64,000 nucleotides of DNA. It comes from Pirellulaceae bacterium (GTDB taxonomy: Bacteria; Planctomycetota; Planctomycetia; Pirellulales; Pirellulaceae). This document shows positions 159 to 56,851 of this stretch, in pieces. The stretch is taken from positions 25,689-89,688 of the forward strand of contig JBGTJE010000103.1 in assembly GCA_041745295.1 (NCBI GenBank), read 5' to 3'. A program made the position numbers and the translations under genes. The notes beneath the pieces were generated by a model. It saw only the letters and a list, made by a program, of their open reading frames with translations. It did not search any database and was not told where the DNA came from. Position 1 is the stretch's first letter. Each line of letters starts with the position of its first letter.

Positions 159-3100
159 ATGGCCTCTGGTGAAAACGACTCCAAGAATCCATCTGACACC
201 GAGAAACCAAAACGCGTCGATGAGATTGCCGAGGCGTACCTGAAATCGCTGCATAAACGGCCCGATTCGACGTCGTTGCGCGAGATTGTGGACCAACATC
301 CGGATCTTGCACCCGATTTGGAAAGGCGCCTTCGGTTTATCGAGTCTGTGTTTCGTGCGCTGCAAAGCGACTCGAGCGCAGCTGCAGCTGCCGGCGACGA
401 AGCGGATTTGGCGGTGCCTTCTTTATCCCCGAGCAGAGACGATCCAAGGTCGGGTGACGGCGATGGAATTCTGAACGACCGCGTCGTCAGTGTCCGCTGC
501 CCGCATTGCGGGAATATGCTCAAAGTCGTTTCGCAGGGGCCCGTCGAAGTTACCTGCGGGAGCTGCGGCAGCGCAGTCAGTGTCGACCCGAACGCCACGC
601 GGACGGACGCTCAGTCCCGGACTCCGAAGTTTATCGCACACTTCAAAATCCTCGGCAAACTTGGGCAGGGGGCATTCGGAACCGCTTATAAGGCCGAAGA
701 CACTCGCCTGGGCCGAACGGTGGCAGTCAAAATCCCCCGGGCCGGAAGCTTTGCAACCGCCAACGACGAACTTCGATTCGTCCGCGAAGCCCGCCACGCG
801 GCACAATTGAGACACCCTAATATCGTCCAGGTCCACGAGATCGCCACCGATCATGGCATACCCTATCTCGTGAGTGATTTCATCGATGGGATCACCCTCG
901 CCGATTTAATCAGCGGACGACGTCTCTCGTTTCGTGAATCGGCTGAAATGATTGTCGCAATCGCCGAAGCGGTTCAGTTCGCGCACGCTCACAATGTGAT
1001 CCACCGGGATCTCAAGCCGAGCAATGTGCTCCTGGATGCCAATCGCAAGCCCTACATCACCGATTTTGGTTTGGCTCGTCAGTCCGAGGGCGAATTCACG
1101 ATCACGCTGGAAGGTGAAGTTCTAGGCACGCCGGCGTACATGTCCCCCGAGCAAGCGTCGGGCAAAGACGTTGACCCACGCGCGGACATTTACAGCCTGG
1201 GAGTCATCTTCTATCGGCTCGTCTGCGGCGAACTCCCGTTTCGCGGCAGCCAGCGGATGATGATCCACCAAGTCCTGCACGACGACCCGCGCCCGCCACG
1301 GCGATTGGACGAACGGATCCCGCGCGACGTGGACACAATCATTCTCAAGGCCATGGCCAAGGAACGAGATCGTCGCTACGCGTCCGCGGCAGACTTTGCG
1401 GCCGACGTGCTCCGTTGGCTGCAATCGCAACCGATCACTGCTCGACCCGTGGGAATCGTTGGTAAGTCCATACGCTGGTGCCGCCGTAATCCGTCCGGGA
1501 CCTTGGTCATCGCCGGAACTTCGGCATTGCTCCTCACGATTGCGGGGATTTCCGCGGCTTGGGCTTTTCGTGAACGGGCGGTCCGCGACGTGATGATTGA
1601 AAGCGCAAAAAACCGCGTTGAAGCGCTCCGCCGGCTGGTTGGTGCTCACGAGCAGAACGGGCTGGAGCGGCTCAAAGCGGGTGATTCGTTCGGCGCTTCG
1701 TCCTGGTTCTCAAAGGCATTGACTGCGGAAAGCGACGCAGTTGTTGATCCGTCGGACGCATTGGTCGCCGCGGATATGGATCGGCAACGGTTCCGCATCG
1801 GAATGATTCACCAGTCGCTACCTAAACTTCTCCAGGTGTGGCCTTCGGCGGGAAAAGTGACTCGCCTCGAATTCAACGCCGACGGAAGGACTCTTTTGGC
1901 AACGTCTCAAGCCGGCGTGGTGCAGGCGATCAACCCGGACTTGGATGAGCCGGTCGTCCTCCAAGCGGAAAACGGCTCCGAGATTTGGAACAGCGACCTT
2001 GACCCAAGCGGCACCCGGGCGTGCACAGCGACATTGGAAAACCATGCCGACTTGTGGGATGTGACCAACAAAACGCGAATTGCTCGCTTGCCCCACGACG
2101 CTCGGGTTTGGTCTGCCAATTTCAGCCCAGACGGCAAATCGATTGCAACGGCTGGCGCCGACCACAACGCGGGTGTTTGGAAATCCGAAGATGGATCCTT
2201 GATTGACAAATTCGAACATTCGGGGAAATACATCAGTTTTGCAAAATTTTCGCCGGATTCCCAAACCCTTCTTACCGTGTCAACAGAGCCCGAGCAGCCG
2301 ATCGAGCTGCGACTGTGGGATATCGCTGGCAAGAAACTGCGGACAGCCATTTTTCAATGTCCCGCGCAGGTTAATGACATTGCATTCGACAATTCGGGCA
2401 ATCGAATCTACGCTGCTTGCGAAGACGGAACGGTCGTCATTTGGAACGCGCAATCCGGCGAGGTGGATGGTGATCCGCTGCGGCACGATGCCAGTCTCGG
2501 CCGCTTGCGATTCGTCGACGATGGTCACACGCTAATTACCGTCACGCGGGAGGGGAAGATTGCTTTTTGGGACCTTCGAAAAAAGTTCCGAAAAGAAGTA
2601 AACATTCAGTCACTATCCGCTGTTAACGACGTTGCCGTCGATCCGCGCGGCAACTTCCTTGCCATCGCAAATAACGACAAACGGGCCCGCGTTTTTTGGA
2701 AGTATTGCGCCGAGCCGGCGTGCCCCGAAATCCCGTTGGGGGGCCACGCACTGGCGGTCGCGTTTCATCCCGACGGCCGTCGATTGGCGGTCGGGGGGGA
2801 CGACGGCGTCGTACGCCTTTGGGATTTGGCCGGCCTGGCGCCTCGTCATGATGCAATTCGAACTTCCGCGGAAATCACCGCACTCCATTATAGTCACGAC
2901 GGGAAGCGGCTGCTCGTTGCGGATCGAGCTCGCACTGCGTCGCAGTGGGACGCAACGACTCTCCGGCCGATTGGCGAACCGATGAAGCACGAGGATGAAG
3001 TCATCTATTGCGAATACGATTCCGCTAATGAACTTGTGGTTACCGCAAGTTCGGACAACACCGCTCAAGTCTGGAATGCGAACACGGGACAGCCGGTCGG

Positions 3101-6303: not shown

Positions 6304-7617
<1,314 letters not shown>

Positions 7618-7682
7618 CAGTTCTTTTTTGTGTGCCACTGGCTGTGCCCGTGTTGCGATCTGCTCGCGCTGTGCATGGGTCT

Positions 7683-7835
7683 CGAAAAGTAGGTCTCGCG
7701 AGCCGAGCGAGATCTGGCGCCATCCCGCAGGTTCTAATCCTTTGATGGTCAAACAACCGTTGGTTCCATTAGTCTTGAATCAACTATCCGGCTGACAGTT
7801 CAAGGTCTCGCTCGGCTCGCGAGACCTACTTTTCG
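7683..7835. repeat. MITE-like palindromic element, copy 1. Perfect 30-bp terminal inverted repeats (7683..7712 and 7806..7835) flank a 93-bp core.
   Basis: The left TIR cgaaaagtaggtctcgcgagccgagcgaga is the exact reverse complement of the right TIR. The same TIR core recurs at 13160..13330. It lies between the convergent eno and P-type ATPase genes, and the right TIR overlaps the ATPase stop codon. Confidence 0.7.
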
Positions 7836-9775
7836 AAATCAAAGAGCGCTTGCGATGGAACGGAAACCCGCAGGGCGTTGAGAACGGCCAAGACGTCGAT
7901 GATTTCTTGGCAAATGGCACCGGCGACGGGAGGGAGATAGCCGGCGGCTGCGGCGATCATCCCCAAGATGCTGAGCGCCATCCCGCCGATGGCACTTTGC
8001 AGCGCAATCCGCCGCATCCGGCGACTGATGTGCAAAAATTCGTCGACGCGTTGCAACGAGCTGTCGAGAACTACCACGTCGCCGGCTTCGGTCGTGACAT
8101 CGTTGCTTTGTCCAAAAGCGATGCCGACCGTTGCGGCCAACAATGCCGGCGCGTCGTTGATGCCGTCGCCGACGAAAATCGTCTTGGCCCGCGCTGTCTC
8201 CGCGTTCACGATCGCCAATTTTTGTTCGGGGCTTTGCTGAAAATACACATTGTCGATGCCGACTTGGTCGGCTAAATACTTCACTTCGGATTCCCGGTCG
8301 CCCGAGACGATCAGCGTCCGATTGATTAAGTGTTTCGGATAAAGATGATGGACAAACGAGGCGCCCTCTTTGCGCGGCTTGTCGCGAAACCGGACCATCG
8401 CGGCGAACTTGTTGTCGATTAATACGGCGCATTCCATTCCCCCGACTTGTGGCGGAAACTCCGACGCGAGTTGCGGTTGTGCTTTCAATAATTTGCCGCG
8501 ACTGGTGATCTGAATTTTCTTGCCGGAGACAAGCCCGCGCAGACCCTCACCCGGCCGCTCGCTCATTTCGCTGACGTCATAGACCGTCGAGCGCGATTGT
8601 TTGGCCGCCAAGAGAAACGGGGCGGACAGCGGGTGCTTGGAGTACCGCTCCAAACTACTCACCAAGGCAAGAATCTCGCCTGCGTTAAATCCCGGCGCCG
8701 GAAGGATCTGCTCGAGCCGAGGTTGGCCATAGGTCAGGGTCCCGGTCTTGTCAAAGATAATCGTGCGACAGGTATCCGCCGTCTCCAGCGCCGACGGATC
8801 GCGGACGATGATCGACCGCTTGGCCGCCAATGAAATCGAGCCGATGATCGCAACCGGAATCGCGATCAGCAAGGGACAAGGAGTTGCTACGACGAGGACC
8901 GAGAGAAATCGCACCGGGTCGCCGGAAAGCCACCACGCCACCAAGGCAATCGACAGCGCAATGGGGGTGTAGACGGCGCCGAGCGAATCGCCCAAGCGGC
9001 GAATCTGGGGCCGCTTCTCTTCCGACGCCTGCATGACTTTCATGATTTTGGCATAGCGCGAATCTCGGGCCAAAGCATCCGCGCGAATCACCAGCGCCAT
9101 TTCGCCGTTGATCGCTCCGGACAACACCGATGAACCGGGGGTCTTGCTCATGACGTAGGGTTCGCCGGTCAAGTAACTTTCGTCCATCGTGCCGTGACCT
9201 TCGATCACAGTTCCGTCGATGGGGCAGGTTTCGTGCGGAAAGACAACGACCGTGTCGCCGACGACAAGCTGCGCGAGCGGCACATCCTCGATGTTTGCCC
9301 CGACCTTGCGGTGTCCGATCGCCGGCATGCGTTTACTCAAGGCACGAAGTACCGATGAAGCACTACGGACTGCATAGGCCTCTAACGCTTCGCCGCCGGA
9401 AAGCATGAGCACAACGAGCGCGCCAGCCAGATACTCTCCCAGGAAAATCGACACGACGATCGAGATGCCCGCCAGCAGGTCGGAACCAAACTGGCGGCGC
9501 AGCAGTTTGAGCAGCAATTGCAGCACCAGCGGGCTGCCACCCGCAATCGCGGCCCCCAACGGCCAGTTGGCGGCTTCTGCCCAGGGCGATGCCTTCAACG
9601 CCAAGTGCAATCCGATCATCGAGATTGTCCATCCCGCGATGATCGCGTCGTGTGATCGCTTGAAAATACTAACCCATCGATTTTGCGCCATGTATTCGCC
9701 CCGGTACTTGGAACAATGTATCATTGCCAAGTAGCGGCCGTTAACCAGGCGGTTTGCGATTGGTACCGGTTCCAA
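7826..9775 (-). CDS. P1B-type heavy-metal-translocating P-type ATPase with a TPCP transmembrane motif and no N-terminal metal-binding domain
   Basis: DKTGTLT phosphorylation motif, [15 protein letters not shown], and TPCP in the metal-binding TM helix. The ORF start at 9775 is a TTG. In-frame ATGs at 9724 (MIHCS..) or 9691 (MAQNRW..) are more plausible starts. Confidence 0.8.
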
Positions 9776-10300: not shown

Positions 10301-10635
10301 CCCCCACAAGGCAAAGTCGCTGCGGACTTTGCCACCGACACAGAACACTTCGGAGGCGTTGCCAATAAAAACTGGCCGTTCACAGCCATTCGCTTGCCCA
10401 ACGGCAACACGGTTTGCACTAGTTACGGCCAGCGTGAGCCAGATGCCGTTAAGCTATTCGAAGTCACCCGCGACAAGGCAGAGCCAGTGGCACACAAAAC
10501 CGCCTGCCTGGAGCGCGCATTTCGACTTGGTAGCCGAATTCGCCAGAATTAGGGCAAGGCGTCTTCATCCGCGCCCAAACGCTGGGGAATCCCGCTACAG
10601 TTTGCTGAGAGTGCCTTCCCGCTGAAAACTGAAAA

Positions 10636-13159: not shown

Positions 13160-13330
13160 GTAGGTCTCGCGAGCCGAGCGAGAACTTGCGCCAATACGAT
13201 TTCACCAATTCGATTGGCGTTCAATGTCAGTAACGTCTACCGAATTCTGTTTGGACGGCTCGGCGGGTTACGTGATTTGGACCAGCGAATTTATTGGTCG
13301 TGCGATGTCTCGCTCGACTCGCGAGACCGA
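13160..13330. repeat. MITE-like palindromic element, copy 2. It shares the gtaggtctcgcgagccgagcgaga left terminus with copy 1, has a degenerate right TIR, and a different core.
   Basis: The left end 13160..13183 is identical to 7689..7712. The right end is tctcgctcgactcgcgagacc (13308..13328), one mismatch in the TIR core. It lies between convergent genes. Confidence 0.6.
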
Positions 13331-13375
13331 CGGCCCAAATTGAACGATTGTGATGCCGCTCCTTCGCGAACACCA

Positions 13376-48500: not shown

Positions 48501-51500
48501 ATCAGATTGCCGCCGGTGTCGTATTCGGCGACGACATTCGTCAGGCCCAGTGGGTCGATGAGGTACTCGGTGCGAACGCCTCCATCGACTTTGGCGACGC
48601 GATTGCCCAGCGCGTCGTATTCGTAACCGACCCTGAGCACTCCATCGACCCAGCTCAGCAGGCGGCTCTCATCGTCGTAGGTATAGGTCGTGCCGCCTCC
48701 GGCTTCATCCGTGATCAGGTTGCCGTCCTTATCGTAGGTTCGGTCGAACGAACCGATCCGCTCGTACTGGTTCAGCTTGTTGGTCGTGTAGTTGGTCGGA
48801 GCGCCATTGTCGATCACCGCCGTGCGGTTGCCAACGGCGTCGTACTGATACTGAATAATCCGGCTGTCGGGGAGTACGACCAACGTCAGTTGCCCGATGG
48901 CGTCGTAGCCGAACGTCGTCAAGCCTTCCAACGTCGTGACGCTCGTCCGCCGGCCCAAGTCGTCATAGGTGTAATCGAACCGCGAACTGACGGTGCCATC
49001 GGGAAGATGATTCACCAGGCTCGTAAGCTGGCCTGCGTCATCGAACCCATACGTGGTGAACGTGAGGTTGCCGTTGTCTTCGCGGCTGAGCCGCCCGACC
49101 GAGTCATAGGTGTAGAGAACCAGCCGGATGTCCGAGCCGTCCGTCAACTCACCAATTCGGCCGGCTGCGTCGTATCGGTACTGGACGATGAAACCGGATT
49201 GGTCTTCGAGCCGGATTCTCCGCCCGCCGGCGTCATATGTGTATTGGAGGAAGCGGGCATCGGGGTACGTCACTTTGGTCAAACGATCCGCGGCGTCGTA
49301 GTCGAACGTCGTCGTCCCGGCTTCATCGGTCGCCGTCCGCAGGTTGCCCCGGTCGTCGTAGGTGAACACCTCAAACGTGCCGTCGGCGTGGTCCTTGCGG
49401 AGCAGGAGGCCGCGGTCGTCGTAGGCGTAGTCGATCACCTGGATGCGGCGGTTGATGGATTGCGTGATGTTGCCGTCGGCGTCTGGCGTGACCTGCTCCA
49501 CGGAGCCGTCCACGTGGATGATGCCCGTCAGATTGCCCTGGGCGTCATAGGTGTAGCGGAGGGGGATGCTGCCCTCGTCGCGAATCGTGGTCGGCAGGTT
49601 GAACGTGGTGTCGTAAGTGAAGCTGAGCGAACGGCCGTCCGGCTTCACGACGAACGTGAGATTGCCGTTGCCATCGAAATCGAAGAGTGAGACCGTATCG
49701 AGCGGTTGCGTCACGCGGTCGAGCCGATGCAGAGCGTCGTAGTCGAACCGCGACGAGCGGTCGAGCGCATCGCGCGTTTCCAGGAGTTGGCCGAATTCAT
49801 TGAAGAAGAGCGACGTGGTCTTGTTGAAGGCGTCGGTGATGAAGACTTCGCCGACGCTGCCATAAGCCAACGTCACGGCTTCGGCGTTTCCGTCACGGGA
49901 GGAGCCGACGAGCCGGCCCTGGGCGTCGTATTCATAGAAAACGTGCGTCTCGTCGGGCGTACCGTCGGCTCGCGTCACCGAGGTCAGCGCGTGCTCCGCC
50001 GACGAACCGGCAGTCGTTTCGTAGGTATACGCGATCGTGCTGTCGGGGCCGGTGACGCTCATCAAGTGCTCGCCGGCGGCATCGTATACAAACGTCGTGA
50101 GCCGCCCAACCTGATCGGTGAGTTGGGCAAGCCGACCCGCGGCGTTGTAGCCAAAGACGAACTGGTCGCCGTTGGAGTGCGACAAGCTCACGAGCCTCCC
50201 GTCGTCGTAGTTCAGCGTGACCTGGTGCCCGTTGCGATCGGTTACGTCGAGCAGACGCCCCGTCACTTCGTCAAAGCGGCTGATCGTTCCATTGGTCTCA
50301 CGCAGCGAAAAAACACCGCTTGCCAGTGTGAGTTGAGCGTGATCGAGGAGCGAACTCCTGAAGAGGCCAGGGAAGAAGACCACCTCGTCGAACCGCCGCG
50401 TGCCGCCCGGCGTGCGGATCAGGACGTCGTTCGTGACCCCGTTGTCGTTCGGTACGCGCGACAGGCTGATGTCCCACGGGTCGGACCAGCCGCGGCCGAG
50501 GATGCCCATGTCAAAGCGCCGCGAGATCGTCGGGGCGAACGTCCGACCCCAGACCAGCGGCACCCCACTGGCGGGCGCGGCGGCGTCGATGGCCGAGTGC
50601 GGGCTGCCGCCCGGTAGTGCGTTATCCGCTTGCGCGAAGTGGACGCTCAGCAGCCGGTCAATGTCGGTCGTGTAAATCTCGTAGCGACTGAGATAAGTGG
50701 CGGCGTCCCGGAGCGCTTGCAGGTACGAGCCAACGGTCGTGCCGACTCGCGTGAGGAGGTTTCTGAAAACCACGTCCCACGCGGCGGGCGAGACGGTGGG
50801 CGGGCGCAACTCGTCCTTGTGCGAGGCCAGAGCGAAAGGCTTATCGTCCGGTCCGGCCTGGATCAGCCGGAACAGGAGTGGGTTACGATCCAGCGCGTCG
50901 AGATCCTCTATGAAGCGAACCTCCTGGAGTTCGTGGGTGCCCGGGGGAAGCACGCCCGCCGGGCCGGATGTGCTGGTCGCAAAAAACTGGATCACGTTTT
51001 TGGCAGGCGACTCTAAGTCTTCCGGTAGGGGCCGCGGCCCCTGGGGGGGGAGCGAAGTACCGCTGCCCGTAGACCCGCCTCCGCCACCGCCATCTCCGCT
51101 TCCGACTCTTATTTGTCTTGGGACTGGGGGGACGATGACATTGGCGTTTGGCGACTCGATCAGCAGCAGGGGTGCCGGAACGTCCGTCTCTCCGACGTTC
51201 GAATACTCGATGAACAGGCTATCCTCGCGGCCTCCGAGAGTCGTCGCCGCCGCAAACAGTCGAACTGCAAACACGCCGGGGTTCCCGGTCGTCACCGTGA
51301 ACGCGCTCGCCAACTCCGTCGAGCTGGCACCATCCACGGCGCGCACGCTGTAAGAGCCGGTCGCTAATCCCGCGAGATTGAACGTCACGAAAAAGGTCGT
51401 CTCACTCTGCTGCACGACGTTCGCCGCCGGCAGGCTACTCGCCTGACCCACCAGACTGAAGACGGTCTCGGTCGAGAAGCCGGTCCCGATAATCGTGGTC

Positions 51501-53821
51501 GTGACCTGTCCGACATTGCTGCCACGGTTGGGCGTAACTTGATTAATCTCCATCCCCACCGAATCGGCCGTGAGCGAGAAATGCCCGAGCGGCACGCCCG
51601 CCGTCGAGGTCCCGCGCACTCGGATGAAGGACGGAACCGGCGCGCCGGCCAGCGAGAACTCAGGGTTAGGATTGACGAACGCGACCACGCGCTCGAAGAA
51701 GTTGTTCGCATCCGGCAGGTCGCCCATGCGCACGAGAATCTCGCCCATTTGGGGATCCGTGAAATGGGCCGTCAGCCGGGCATTGGTCCCCGGCGGGACA
51801 TTCAGCCGGAACGTGAACTCCTGCCCTAGTAACAAATCTCGCTCGATCGTCGGGCCGTCCAATTCCAGGATCGAAGCGGCCCCGCTGACCGTTCGCGAAA
51901 ACTCGGAAGTGTCGGTCGGCACAGACGGCGTGGCTGAATTGGAGTCGTGGTCGAAAAGCAGCGTGGCGGTTGAAGTGACCTGTTGGTCCGGCGTGAGCAG
52001 CGCCGGCATTTCGGCGGAGAAGCTCACGTTGCCTGCCGAGTCGGTATGGACGATGGTCTCGCCGAGAAATGTCTGCCCCTCGCCAAAACCCGAAGGATCG
52101 GCCGCGTCGCTGGCGAAGAACTGGATCAAGAAATCGGTTTGCGCCATGCTGTTGAGCGAGCCGAAGATGGTCGAATCCACCGCGCTGCTCAGGACCTCGA
52201 CCAGAACCGGGAAATTTTGCCCGTTGTTGCCAATGAAGATGAAGTTGCCGGAGTGGTCGGCGTCGCCGGGGTCGTTGGCCGTCACACCGGCGGCGTTTTC
52301 GCTGCCTCCAGGCAGGTTAATTCCTAGGCGACCGTTGGCAAAGATGGAGTTTCCCAGGATGGGATACGAGCCAAGGCCACCAATCAGGATCCCGTCGTTG
52401 CCGTTGGAAAATATCGTGTTTCCCAGGATGGGCATCGGGTTACCGACCGAAACCCCAATCCCGGTGTTGAAAGCGATGACGTTCCCCGCACCGGGCGCCG
52501 TTCCGCCAACTTGGGAAGAAAGGGGAGAGCCCGATATACCGTGGCCAACGAAAGGGGAAGGACTGCCATTACCAAGCGGGCTAATGCCATCGGCTTGCGT
52601 GCCAATGAAGTTGCCCAACACCAAGATCCCCGACGAGGATCCCTGCCCCACGAACGTCTGGGCGCTGATTCCATTCCCCGGGTTGCCGGAAATGACATTG
52701 CGCGCGTGGACGATCCCGTCGAGCATCCCGTCGTCGTCATCGTCTCCTCCAATCATGATGTTTCCAGATACGAAGAAGGAAATGCCCCCCGCTCCGTTGC
52801 CGATCGCCACCGTGCCCGTCACGTCCGTGCCGATGTAATTGCCTTGGATGAAGAGGCCACTCTGGCGGGCGACATTTACGCCAAAAAAGCCATTGCCCGA
52901 GATGATGTTGCGCGCCCCGGCAACCGTCCCACCGATGACAGTTCCGCTGCTATCGATGTCTCCAATTCCCAAGCTCACGCCAGTATCCCCATTCCCCAGG
53001 TCTTGGGTGCCAGTGATGTCGGTGCCGATGAAGTTGCCTTGCACCTGGTTGAATTTGCCGTGGTTACTCCCCTCGACCCCGATTCGGTTGTTGCCCGAGA
53101 TGACATTGCGGGCGGCCGGTGTCGTCCCGCCGATCCGGCTGCTAGTCTCATTGAAATTGATGACCACACCGGAGCCGTTGTTGCCCAGATCAACCGTGCC
53201 GCTGGCATCGGTGCCGATGAGGTTGCCTTCGACCACGTTGCTGGTTGAAACCACCAAGTTAATTCCGTGTCCTGTGAAACGGTTGACGACCAGTCCTCGG
53301 ATCGTGCTGCCCCCCCCGCCGCTGATTGTCAGCCCATCCACGCTGCCGGCGCTGGTTCCATCAAGCTCGATTCGCAGCACCGTGTTGAGGCCCAGCAGGG
53401 ACTCGACCGAATTGGTGTTTATGCTGGTCCCTGGCTGCGTGTAGCCGTCGATGATCACCGAGCCGGTTATGGTCGGCAGGGCGGAGGTCGGGGCGATCGT
53501 TTGAACGCCGGAACCGGGGATATTGAAATTGATGGCGTCTGTCCCAACAGTCTCGTAGGGCTCCAAAGTCACCACGTCCGCATTGACGTTCGCGTTATTG
53601 TTCGCGGAAGTAATGGCCTCGCGAAGAGTCACCAGACCATCGACAGCGATTGTGTCACCGATGCCGGTAACGATGATCGTCGCAAGAAGTACGCGGTCTT
53701 CCAGCTGCTCGATTCCCGGTTGGTAATGCCGTGGTGCGGGGCGCCGCAATTGCGCGTCCGCGCGTTTTCGGAGCCGAAGAGATCTCGTGGAGAACCGCTT
53801 ACGTAATCTTGACCAATTCAT
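45569..53821 (-). CDS. Giant secreted multi-domain protein (2750 aa). It has an N-terminal LEDRVLLA motif, a CSLREA-like segment, parallel beta-helix repeats, Ig/IPT-like domains, RHS/YD repeats with an RHS core (DPxGL), a GEVED-like domain and C-terminal RTX repeats.
   Basis: [13 protein letters not shown] (CSLREA-like). Many NxIxGN/GTxxxGN beta-helix repeats. YD repeats (YDxxGRL, YTYDxxG). RHS core [74 protein letters not shown]. Its ATG overlaps the upstream kinase stop in an ATGA. Confidence 0.9.
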
Positions 53822-56763
53822 TGCTTACCCTTTTCTGATTCTTGACTCTTTAGCTCGTCGAACTTCTTCCGCCACTCGGCGGCCTTTTCTTCGTTGCCCG
53901 TCGCTTCGTAGAGTTGCGCCAATCTCTCGAGAGACTCTCGTAACCGCTGATCTCCATCCCGCTGAGGCGTCTTGGCTTCGACTTGTTTCAGCCCCTCGTA
54001 GCCGGCCAGCAACAGCGGTTCGGCCTCGGCGAATTTTTTCTGGCCGAGCAGACTGCCGCCGAGCACGGACTTGGTGCAAAAGGTGGCCCAGGCGTCTGGC
54101 TCCGTCTTCTCACGGATCGCCAAACACTCGCGCAGGAGCGGCTCGGCGTCGGCGGGCTTGTTTTGCGCCAGCAGGCTTGCTCCGATTGGGTGTAGTTCTG
54201 CAGCGTATTGCGGCGAGTCAGCACCGGCTTTCTCTTTCCAAAACGTGGCCAGTTCGCGCCAAATAAGTTCGGCTTTTTCCGACTGGTGCAATCTGTCGTA
54301 GCAGTCTGCCAAGTTTCGCATGTATGTCTGGGTGAAGGAGTGCTCAAGTCCAAGCTTGGCACGTGCTCCAGCGACTGCGTCTCGGAAAAGCGGTTCGGCC
54401 TCGGCCACCTGGCCCATTTCCCGGTAGTCAGTTGCCAGGTTGTTCATGCTGTTGAGCGTATCGGGGTGGTCGGGGCCGACCGTCGCTTTCCGCCTCTCCA
54501 ACGTCTCTACGTCGAGTGCCATTGCTTTGTCGAACTTGCCGGCGGCCTTATATGTTGCGGCGAGGTTGCTCATGCTGCCGAGCGTGTGGGGATGGTCGGG
54601 GCCAATCGCCACCCGTTGTTTTTCGAGCGCCTTTTCCAAGAGTGGCAAAGCTTGGTCGAACTTGCCGGCGGCTTGGTACGCGGTGGCCATATTGTTCATG
54701 CCGATAAGAGTGTTGGGATGGTCGGGGCCGACCGTTGCCAACAGTTTCTCCAGAGACTGTTCGCGAAGCGGCAGGGCTTTGTCAAGCTTGCCGGTGGCAT
54801 GGTACGCAGTCGCCACGTCGCTCATGCTGGTGAGCGTGTCAAGATGATCGGGGCCCAGCGTCGCTTTCCGCTTCTCCAGAGTCTGTTCCCAGAGTTGGCG
54901 GGCCTGATCGAGCTTGCCGGCGGCATAGTATGTCCCGGCTAGATCGTTCATGCTGGTGAGTGTGTCGGCATGGTCAATGCCGAGTGCCACCTTTCGCTTC
55001 TCTAGAGTCTGTTCGCCGAGCAGCAGGGCCTCGTCAAGCCGCCCGGCATCTACGTACGCCCAAGCCAGGTTGTTCATGCTGGTGAGCGTATCGGGGTGAT
55101 CGGGGCCAAGCTGCTCCAAACGGAGTTGTCGGCTTCGCTCGAGCTGCCGAGTGGCCAGCGCCGGTTCGCCCAGGTACAGGTACGATTCTCCCAATGAGTT
55201 GCGGATCGAGGCCTCAACGAGCGGCCTGTCAAGAAAGGCGGGAGCGATTTGTGGCTCGGCTGCGTCGACCGCCGCGCGAATGCTGGCGTCGATGCCCAAT
55301 CCACCGTCGAGATCCTCGGGCCGTGCCGCTGCCAGCACCTTCTCCTGGAAAAATTCAAGGACCGCGCGGGTGTCGGATTCTGACTCCTTCGCTCTGCGGG
55401 CCTCGTCGCGCGCCTTCGCCTCGCTGATCTTGGCCGCATCCTCGGCCGCGACGGCACGATTGCAGTCGTCGTTGGCCTTGCCTTCGGCAACGGTCGCGCG
55501 AACTGCCTGCCAGGCGCTGACCACGGCGCCGCTGACCAACAATGCCATAAAGGCCGCGGCCAACAGGACGCCGCTCTTATGTTTGTGGAAATATTTCCGG
55601 AATTTATAACCCGCCGACGGCGGACAAGCTTGGACCGGTTCGTCGTTCAAGTAGCGTTGCACGTCGGCCGCAAAGCCGTTGGCTGTCTCGTAACGATCGT
55701 TGCGGTCCTTTTCCAGCGCCTTCATTACAATCCAGTCCAGCTCGCCGCGGACCAACCTTGTTAGTTTGGCCGGCTCCGTTTGCCGCTGCGCCGAGATCGA
55801 CGCCAGGGCCTCACCCGAGTCCGAGAGCCGCGTGCTCGGCTTGGGAGGTTCCTCCTCCTTGATCATGCGGAGGATCTCGCCATAAGCCGCCTCCTTCATC
55901 CGCGAATGCGAGAGCGGCGTGCTGCCTGTCAACAGTTCATACAACAGGACGCCCAACGAATAAATATCGCTGCGAGTATCGACGCCCAGGGCGCTCATCT
56001 CCGCCTGCTCCGGGCTCATGTATTCAAAGGTGCCGACCATAGTTCCGTACTGCGTGAACAAAGTACGCTCGGTTAGCGTTTGCTCGGTCGCCTTGGCCAC
56101 GCCGAAGTCAATTACCTTGGCGACGGGCTTGCCGTCGTAAAGCGTGATCATCACGTTGGACGGCTTGATGTCGCGATGGATGATCCCTTTCTGGTGGGCG
56201 TGTTGAATTGCCTGGCAAACCGGCACGAACAGTTCCAACCGCTGGCGCGGCGTCAAGCGGTTGCCGTCGCAGTATTTAGTAATTGGCAGACCATGTACCA
56301 GTTCCATAACGAAGTACGGCCGGCCCGATTCCGTGGCTCCGGCGTCGAGCACGCGAGCAATGTTAACGTGATCCATCATCGCCAAGGCCTGTCGCTCAGC
56401 TTCAAAGCGGGCGATCACCTGGCGGCTGTCCATGCCTGGCTTGATGACCTTAAGGGCTACCTTGCGCTGCACAGGATGCGTTTGCTCGGCCATGAAGACA
56501 GTTCCCATGCCTCCTTCGCCGATTTGCTGCAAGAGCCTGTACGGACCGATGACTGTACCGGGGCGTTCTAGGGGGGACGAGTCGAGCGTTTCCACCCGGG
56601 ACAACACGTCCATGAAACTGCCGAGATGACCATGTTCAGACAGAAGTGACTCGACCCGTTGGCGCAATGAGGCGTCCCCCGCGCAGGCCTCATCGAGGAA
56701 GGCGGCTCGCTCGGCTGGACTCCCCTTGGTCAAGGCAGCAGTAAAGATTTCTCGCTCGGTCAT
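53818..56763 (-). CDS. Ser/Thr protein kinase with one TM helix and C-terminal TPR repeats (981 aa)
   Basis: [34 protein letters not shown] helix [17 protein letters not shown]. At least eight TPR units ([28 protein letters not shown], and so on). Confidence 0.9.
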
Positions 56764-56851
56764 CGCGCAACCCTTTCGGAGTTGGGTCTATACACAGTGC
56801 GTAATTCGGCGGCCAACTCGGCAAGAAAAATGGTCGGCCGGTGGAAAAGGC

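Follow-up and report, generated by a model that had tools for sequence, protein, structure and literature searches.

Both inverted-repeat pairs in the window, which is the whole 64,000-nt stretch of Pirellulaceae DNA analyzed in this study, are best interpreted as GTAG-type REP doublets (REPIN- or BIME-like) of a planctomycete family associated with RAYT genes, and we give this interpretation a probability of roughly 0.87. Their arms are copies of a 25-base unit, composed of GTAG and a hairpin, that is dispersed in planctomycetes and flanks RAYT genes. Each pair is thus best regarded as an ordinary REP doublet and not as the MITE proposed in an earlier sequence-only reading. The repeated entity is the unit of 25-26 nt and not the 153-bp block, and in annotation the loci should carry the label of REP doublets instead of MITEs.

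Inverted repeats and hairpins of the window

The window contains exactly two copies of the 30-nt sequence CGAAAAGTAGGTCTCGCGAGCCGAGCGAGA, one on the plus strand (7683-7712) and one on the minus strand (7806-7835), with none expected from 100 shuffles. The perfect 30-bp inverted repeat described from the sequence is thereby confirmed by exact string search. When one mismatch is allowed, this first inverted repeat grows to 34 nt (7682-7715 and 7803-7836), with 87 nt between the arms. A 24-nt core is matched at four positions, namely 7689 and 13160 on the plus strand and 7806 and 13308 on the minus strand (the last with two mismatches), and none was expected. A second pair with the same terminus, as had been claimed, is indeed present from 13160, its right end being 13331 and not 13330. 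The 10-bp palindrome tctcgcgaga, said to be embedded in each arm, is absent from the whole window by string search. Inside an arm, the actual symmetry is that of a split stem, GGTCTCGC-GAGCCGA-GCGAGACC, with the 8-bp palindrome CTCGCGAG within it.

Each arm is its own hairpin, GTA-GGTCTCGC-GAGCCGA-GCGAGACC, with a stem of 7-8 bp and a loop of 7 nt, and a single unit folds alone as DNA with -9.9 to -10.9 kcal/mol. The short (20-40 nt) GC-rich stem-loop palindrome and the conserved GTAG at the 5' foot of the hairpin, both expected of a GTAG-type REP, were found here; GTAG is present in three of the four window units and replaced by GTCG in one. The units of a doublet lie tail to tail with their GTAG heads directed outward, at the flanking genes. 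As in a REPIN, the two inverted REPs of the window pair can form one hairpin: the whole first pair can fold into a stem of 30-34 bp, for which the energy is -91 kcal/mol in RNA (z-score -9.3) and -45 kcal/mol in DNA. When the window region and eight repeat-rich loci were scanned against Rfam, only sub-threshold, spurious matches to miRNA and snoRNA hairpins were returned. Other GTAG-tagged hairpin families do not exceed chance in the window, where the scan gave five matches against 2.1 in shuffles, three of the five being units of the two doublets. Coordinates are listed in Table 1.

Table 1. Positions of the two REP doublets and of the genes next to the first doublet in the window.
Feature	Position	Strand	Remarks
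Enolase gene (eno)	6316..7617	+	Left neighbour; convergent with the ATPase gene; Pfam
Head-side extension of unit 1L (TCGAAAA)	7682..7688	+	Inverted copy at 7830-7836
REP unit 1L	7689..7714	+	GTAG head 7689-7692; hairpin fold and family covariation
Stem of unit 1L	7692-7699 with 7707-7714		One G.T wobble
Loop of unit 1L	7700-7706		GAGCCGA
Spacer of doublet 1	7715..7803		Unique; without homology to doublet 2 or any fetched locus
REP unit 1R	7804..7829	-	Perfect T-type unit GTAGGTCTCGCGAGCCGAGCGAGACC on the minus strand; head toward the ATPase gene
ATPase stop codon TAG	7826..7828	-	Positions 2-4 of the GTAG head of unit 1R
Head-side extension of unit 1R	7830..7836	-	Codes part of Phe and Glu-Lys of the ATPase C-terminus
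Heavy-metal P-type ATPase gene	7826..9775	-	Right neighbour; Pfam
REP unit 2L	13160..13185	+	GTAGGTCTCGCGAGCCGAGCGAGAAC
Spacer of doublet 2	13186..13305		Unique
REP unit 2R	13306..13331	-	GTCGGTCTCGCGAGTCGAGCGAGACA; one mutated position each in head and loop

The repeat family and its RAYT genes in planctomycetes

The unit was found in more than 140 planctomycete contigs overall. Among species-representative genomes, the T-type unit occurs in two Planctomycetaceae MAGs and on 19 contigs of CB6_Bottom.34, a Planctomycetota MAG, and a metagenome scan detected the exact unit in at least 120 contigs with GC contents of 0.53-0.74. Four units of the family lie in the 64 kb of the window, and close relatives of the organism show no units in 39 kb. 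Searching the window proteins against the REP-rich MAG contigs by tblastn revealed no orthologues, and a literature search for the unit sequence found nothing. Alignment of 285 units shows that the conserved block is restricted to positions 1-25 with random flanks, and that the consensus bases G, T, A and G of head positions 1-4 are each kept in 276-280 units.

Within this repeat family the hairpin is maintained by covariation. Among 102 distinct unit sequences, both-side changes were observed at all eight stem pairs, in 59 cells compared with 13.4 ± 3.1 in shuffles, and none of 500 shuffles reached 59. Pairing is seen in 89.8% of the stem cells and drops to 27-47% if the partner is shifted by 1-3 columns. 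Over the same sequences, the loop hardly varies.

Doublets predominate. Inverted pairs arranged tail to tail make up 246 of 326 units (about 75%), the gap within a pair being 30 nt at the median and ranging from 2 to 200 nt. Of the remainder, 45 are singlets and 35 belong to clusters of other kinds, same-strand arrays among them. With 91 and 122 nt, the window pairs have two of the four longest gaps in the set of 123 pairs, equal to 3-4 times the family median. A doublet conserved together with its spacer as one replicative unit, as a REPIN requires, was not observed, the window spacers being unrelated and the gaps of the family so variable. Since the window spacers are very long and not conserved, each doublet may derive from two separate unit insertions rather than from one REPIN, i.e. 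from two independent single units that came to bracket pre-existing intergenic DNA. The restriction of family-wide conservation to the 25-nt unit agrees with this possibility, whereas the share of units in tail-to-tail pairs is far above the prediction from independent insertion, and identity between the two arms of doublet 1 extends over 30 nt, of which 6-7 nt lie beyond the family core. We regard independent insertion as a real possibility, though it is not the origin we favor for the doublets.

In CB6_Bottom.34, the partner of the T-type unit is a C-type unit (GGTCCCGC...GCGGGACC) at a distance of about 31 nt, the tails of the two facing each other, and what distinguishes the types is a compensatory change from T:A to C:G. 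The T-type/C-type pairs of this MAG contrast with the window, where each doublet combines two T-type units. The TCGAAAA extension of the units of doublet 1 is similar to the (G)CGAAA found ahead of GTAG in the MAG doublets. We also observed extra conserved outer flanks in the CB6_Bottom.34 doublets (L001-L023), in the form ...ACGACAGCGCTAAGTCGTGCGAAA-GTAGG ... CCTAC-TTAGCGCTGTCG. Given the heterodimers and these flanks, the entity repeated in that lineage looks to be a composite of about 120 nt.

Same-strand tandem arrays of three to four REP units with a period of 30-33 nt, unlike the usual inverted pairs, were noted in L111 (2290-2374), L115 (496-619) and L116 (197-314), with identical linkers of 5-8 nt. 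A CRISPR-like nature of these arrays was considered and rejected: the gaps, no longer than 5-8 nt, do not vary within an array, units elsewhere are of mixed orientation, and RAYT genes are flanked by the arrays. A conserved neighbour sequence with short direct repeats (GGGACATTTTGGGACA or GTGACATTTCGTGACATTT) was also seen beside REP units in six loci (L034, L115, L118, L125, L130 and L133). It recurs across several unrelated metagenome contigs and may be the end of another repeated element.

RAYT genes were identified between the unit arrays. Loci L068 and L073 each encode a 202-aa ORF in this position, and their proteins match the NCBIfam model REP_Tyr_transpos (REP-associated tyrosine transposase) with E values of 7e-19 and 8e-20, at 68-71 bits, which is under the equivalog cutoff of 80 bits. 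Scores to Pfam Y1_Tnp are 22 and 25.5 bits with a cutoff of 23. The best match of the RAYT among solved structures is E. coli TnpA-REP (4ER8, E 0.026), with an alignment spanning the HUH and YxxxNP motifs. A database search yielded 689 RAYT homologues at E<1e-10, many of them named 'REP element-mobilizing transposase RayT' by JGI, and NCBI assigns some to Gemmataceae, Pirellulales and Pirellulaceae. Four further homologues were chosen on long contigs (L148-L151). All six RAYT proteins possess the HxH motif and the catalytic Tyr without variation, and all six loci have unit arrays on both sides of the gene, which is the arrangement of a REPtron, in related genomes.

The arrays of L148-L151 contain lineage-specific compensatory stem variants (GTGCCGC/GCGGCAC and GTCCGGC/GCCGGAC) or other loops (CTGCCGG and TTGCCGA). 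In L149 (9871-10822) and L151 (9917-11278), where the RAYT is 56-57% identical to the L068 protein, the flanking units keep the same head and stem and carry the loops CTGCCGG and TTGCCGA. Judged from these sequences, REP and RAYT appear to co-vary. The units of the family would be substrates of RAYT (TnpA-REP), a HUH/Y1 enzyme. RAYT recognizes GTAG together with the hairpin folded in single-stranded DNA, and cuts and rejoins nearby without target duplication. No RAYT gene was detected by tblastn in the 64-kb window; we infer that a RAYT of the window's genome placed the units, by mobilizing them as folded single-stranded DNA.

The view of the window pairs as MITEs denotes a 153-bp deletion derivative of an IS with 30-bp terminal inverted repeats, moved by a DDE transposase, and it would suit the perfect inverted repeat, a size within the MITE range and the second copy with the same ends. 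The interiors are difficult to reconcile with it. Measuring 91 and 122 nt between the 25-nt units, they are unique and unrelated to each other, with no homologous interior from a parent IS; the two pairs have in common only the arms plus about 9 nt (family D16), the shared stretch at one end measuring 34 nt. Searching the spacers by blastn-short against about 150 fetched loci, for homology or degenerate units, gave no match. Target-site duplications are absent at both copies, as no direct repeat flanks either pair (...catgggtc/TCGAAAAG...CTTTTCGA/aatcaaag for pair 1; ...cttttgtt/GTAGG...CCGAC/ggcccaaa for pair 2). Moreover, the arms are repeat units themselves, found alone, in same-strand tandem arrays and in pairs at the variable gaps given above; their covariation keeps a hairpin within each arm, which a transposase-binding terminal repeat does not need; and the gene linked to them encodes a Y1/HUH RAYT, not a DDE enzyme. 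Bacterial MITEs such as Correia elements are likewise small, non-coding and intergenic with inverted ends, and can alter gene ends, but they possess target-site duplications, a conserved interior and DDE-transposase ends. The MITE model is already largely refuted, and we consider it extremely improbable.

Relation to known REP systems

The combination of GTAG with a hairpin, an alternating orientation and the flanking of a RAYT gene defines REPs, BIMEs and REPtrons (PMC2817692, PMC3479197, PMC8266576). In the GTAG-tagged REP superfamily, some families of which come from three planctomycetes (Rhodopirellula baltica, Planctomyces limnophilus and P. brasiliensis; Di Nocera et al. 2013, PMC3733652), dimers predominate, REPs placed between convergent ORFs are within 20 bp of both 3' ends, and the REP head often provides the TAG stop codon (PMC3733652). 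The family described here is alike in its 5' GTAG stem-loop, in the mostly opposite orientation of its dimers, in its location near convergent 3' ends, in the frequent use of the head TAG as a stop and in RAYT genes flanked by repeats (PMC3733652). Its consensus, GTAGGTC[C/T]CGCGAGCCGAGCG[G/A]GAC, is likened by description to the 24 families of the superfamily, whose consensus sequences are given as a figure (PMC3733652).

A perfect palindrome directly preceded by GTAG is the mark of the class typified by S. maltophilia (PMC8266576). REPtron Sm of Stenotrophomonas maltophilia, with a 'group 3' TnpA-REP (Corneloup et al. 2021, PMC8266576), shares with the planctomycete system this GTAG-perfect palindrome without a bulge, the bracketing of tnpA-REP by REP/BIME arrays, and stem and loop variants that track RAYT lineages. 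The planctomycete loop differs, with 7 nt against 3-4, as does the phylum of the host. The REPINs of Pseudomonas fluorescens SBW25 (Bertels & Rainey 2011, PMC3116915) are also two inverted REPs able to form a long ssDNA or RNA hairpin, with doublets outnumbering singlets and RAYT as the partner. Their spacing is fixed (71 bp between 16-mers) and their spacer alignable, in contrast to the 2-200 nt of the planctomycete family and the unique spacers of the window. The window copies thus fall outside the strict definition of a REPIN, a conserved doublet with a conserved spacer (PMC3116915). E. coli REP/BIME elements with TnpA-REP (RayT/YafM; 4ER8) similarly show GTAG followed by a hairpin in alternating orientation, and their y/z mosaics correspond to the T-type/C-type pairing of CB6_Bottom.34 in having two unit subtypes. 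Unlike the planctomycete units, the REPs of E. coli have imperfect palindromes in which a bulge is conserved, and the protein match to 4ER8 is weak.

The breadth at which the 25-nt unit is conserved within the phylum is the only mildly unusual feature of the system. The unit spans Gemmataceae, Pirellulales and Planctomycetaceae-like contigs with GC contents of 53-74%, while the RAYT proteins have diverged to 56-66% identity. An ancient, phylum-wide REP-RAYT partnership, in which an almost invariant unit was kept with RAYT across several planctomycete orders under strong sequence constraint, can be conceived from this span, and we regard it as rather unlikely. If true, the partnership would be unusually old, unlike the REP classes usually reported, and the head would serve as the stop of host genes at many loci. 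To our knowledge, the REP classes usually reported are specific to a species or genus, and we know of REP-RAYT systems studied almost only in Proteobacteria. The 25-nt consensus, the stem covariation and the RAYT family of at least 689 members provide a handle on these systems in Planctomycetota; the current understanding of how REPs work is unchanged by these results.

The eno/ATPase junction

Pfam matches to enolase and P-type ATPase bear out the position of doublet 1 between the convergent eno and ATPase genes. The ATPase ORF ends with ...DFEK*, and its TAG is that of the GTAG in the right arm. The NCBI protein P0001, which is 100% identical to the window ATPase and likewise ends with DFEK, has 597 aa, and the true start of the ATPase is therefore probably internal to the ORF. 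Because the inverted repeat starts within the Phe codon, the head of the unit supplies Glu-Lys-stop. The earlier claim that the right arm provides the last two codons (Glu-Lys) and the stop of the gene is thus correct. Its extension, that an insertion remodelled the 3' end of the ATPase gene, holds as far as the donated codons are concerned and overstates the rest. ATPase orthologues are conserved through ...L-[I/S]-D-F, followed by 0-20 variable residues, and some of them end with DFEK as in the window, so that the ending lies within orthologue variation and no meaningful remodelling is seen. The Glu-Lys-stop of the ATPase is best read as derived from a REP and functionally neutral.

The junction was compared with those of two relatives. 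Locus L145 has the same gene order as the window (kinase, ksgA, ribE, eno and ATPase), with about 80% identity to the window ATPase and 87.5% to the enolase. Its eno and ATPase stop codons (3032-3045) are 12 bp apart without any unit, compared with 208 bp (7617-7826) in the window. In L146 (11860-14763), a PIN-domain gene and two hypothetical genes occupy the junction, which covers 2.9 kb. The junction is a variable spot, measuring 12 bp, 208 bp and 2.9 kb in the three genomes.

The absence of the element at the orthologous site of a relative bears on the alternative of a conserved, immobile hairpin that serves the convergent eno and ATPase genes as a bidirectional terminator or mRNA stabilizer. 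The placement between convergent genes and the very stable RNA fold of the whole pair fit such a function, and a terminator scan gave one borderline minus-strand match at 7712-7694, where one unit is followed by the tail CCTACTTTTC. However, the T-run is no longer than four bases, and the scan did not call the symmetric site of the plus strand. The syntenic junction of L145 lacks the element, that of L146 differs in content too, and copies of the unit are scattered among hundreds of unrelated loci. A terminator role could be secondary for a REP and would leave its origin unexplained. We consider a conserved terminator quite improbable; the part of the sequence-only reading that saw a dispersed, apparently non-autonomous repeat here is supported by the L145 junction.

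For the REP doublet, we propose that one unit landed at the 3' end of the ATPase gene directly after the conserved Asp-Phe, whereby its A-rich head and TAG would now encode Glu-Lys-stop. When transcribed, the doublet may act as a 3'-end structure, i.e. a stabilizer or weak terminator, for both convergent mRNAs. The donation of stop codons was also observed elsewhere in the family. Across 147 loci (L001-L151), an open frame of at least 120 codons ends exactly on the head TAG in 46 of 328 units, and every other offset accounts for at most six. Stops backed by gene calls on the head TAG include the RAYT gene in L150 and the neighbouring cytochrome c and FAA-hydrolase genes in L150/L151, and the RAYT ORF in L068 also stops there. 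Our tally agrees with PMC3733652, in which the phenomenon is already published.

Two further repeats were noticed in the window. A 23-nt inverted repeat, TTTTGTGTGCCACTGGCTGTGCC, is located at 7626-7648 and 10477-10499 with one mismatch, in two copies only (0.01 expected), and its first copy begins 9 nt past the stop codon of eno and shares its intergenic region with the REP doublet; the repeat has no GTAG head, and no obvious hairpin was found in it. Direct repeats with a period of 126 nt, in six copies with 75-95% identity to the reference copy, lie at 54434-55107 and 48661-49555 together with a looser repeat family of about 126 nt, and they are probably inside large minus-strand ORFs for repeat-domain proteins (one ORF at 53818-56787).
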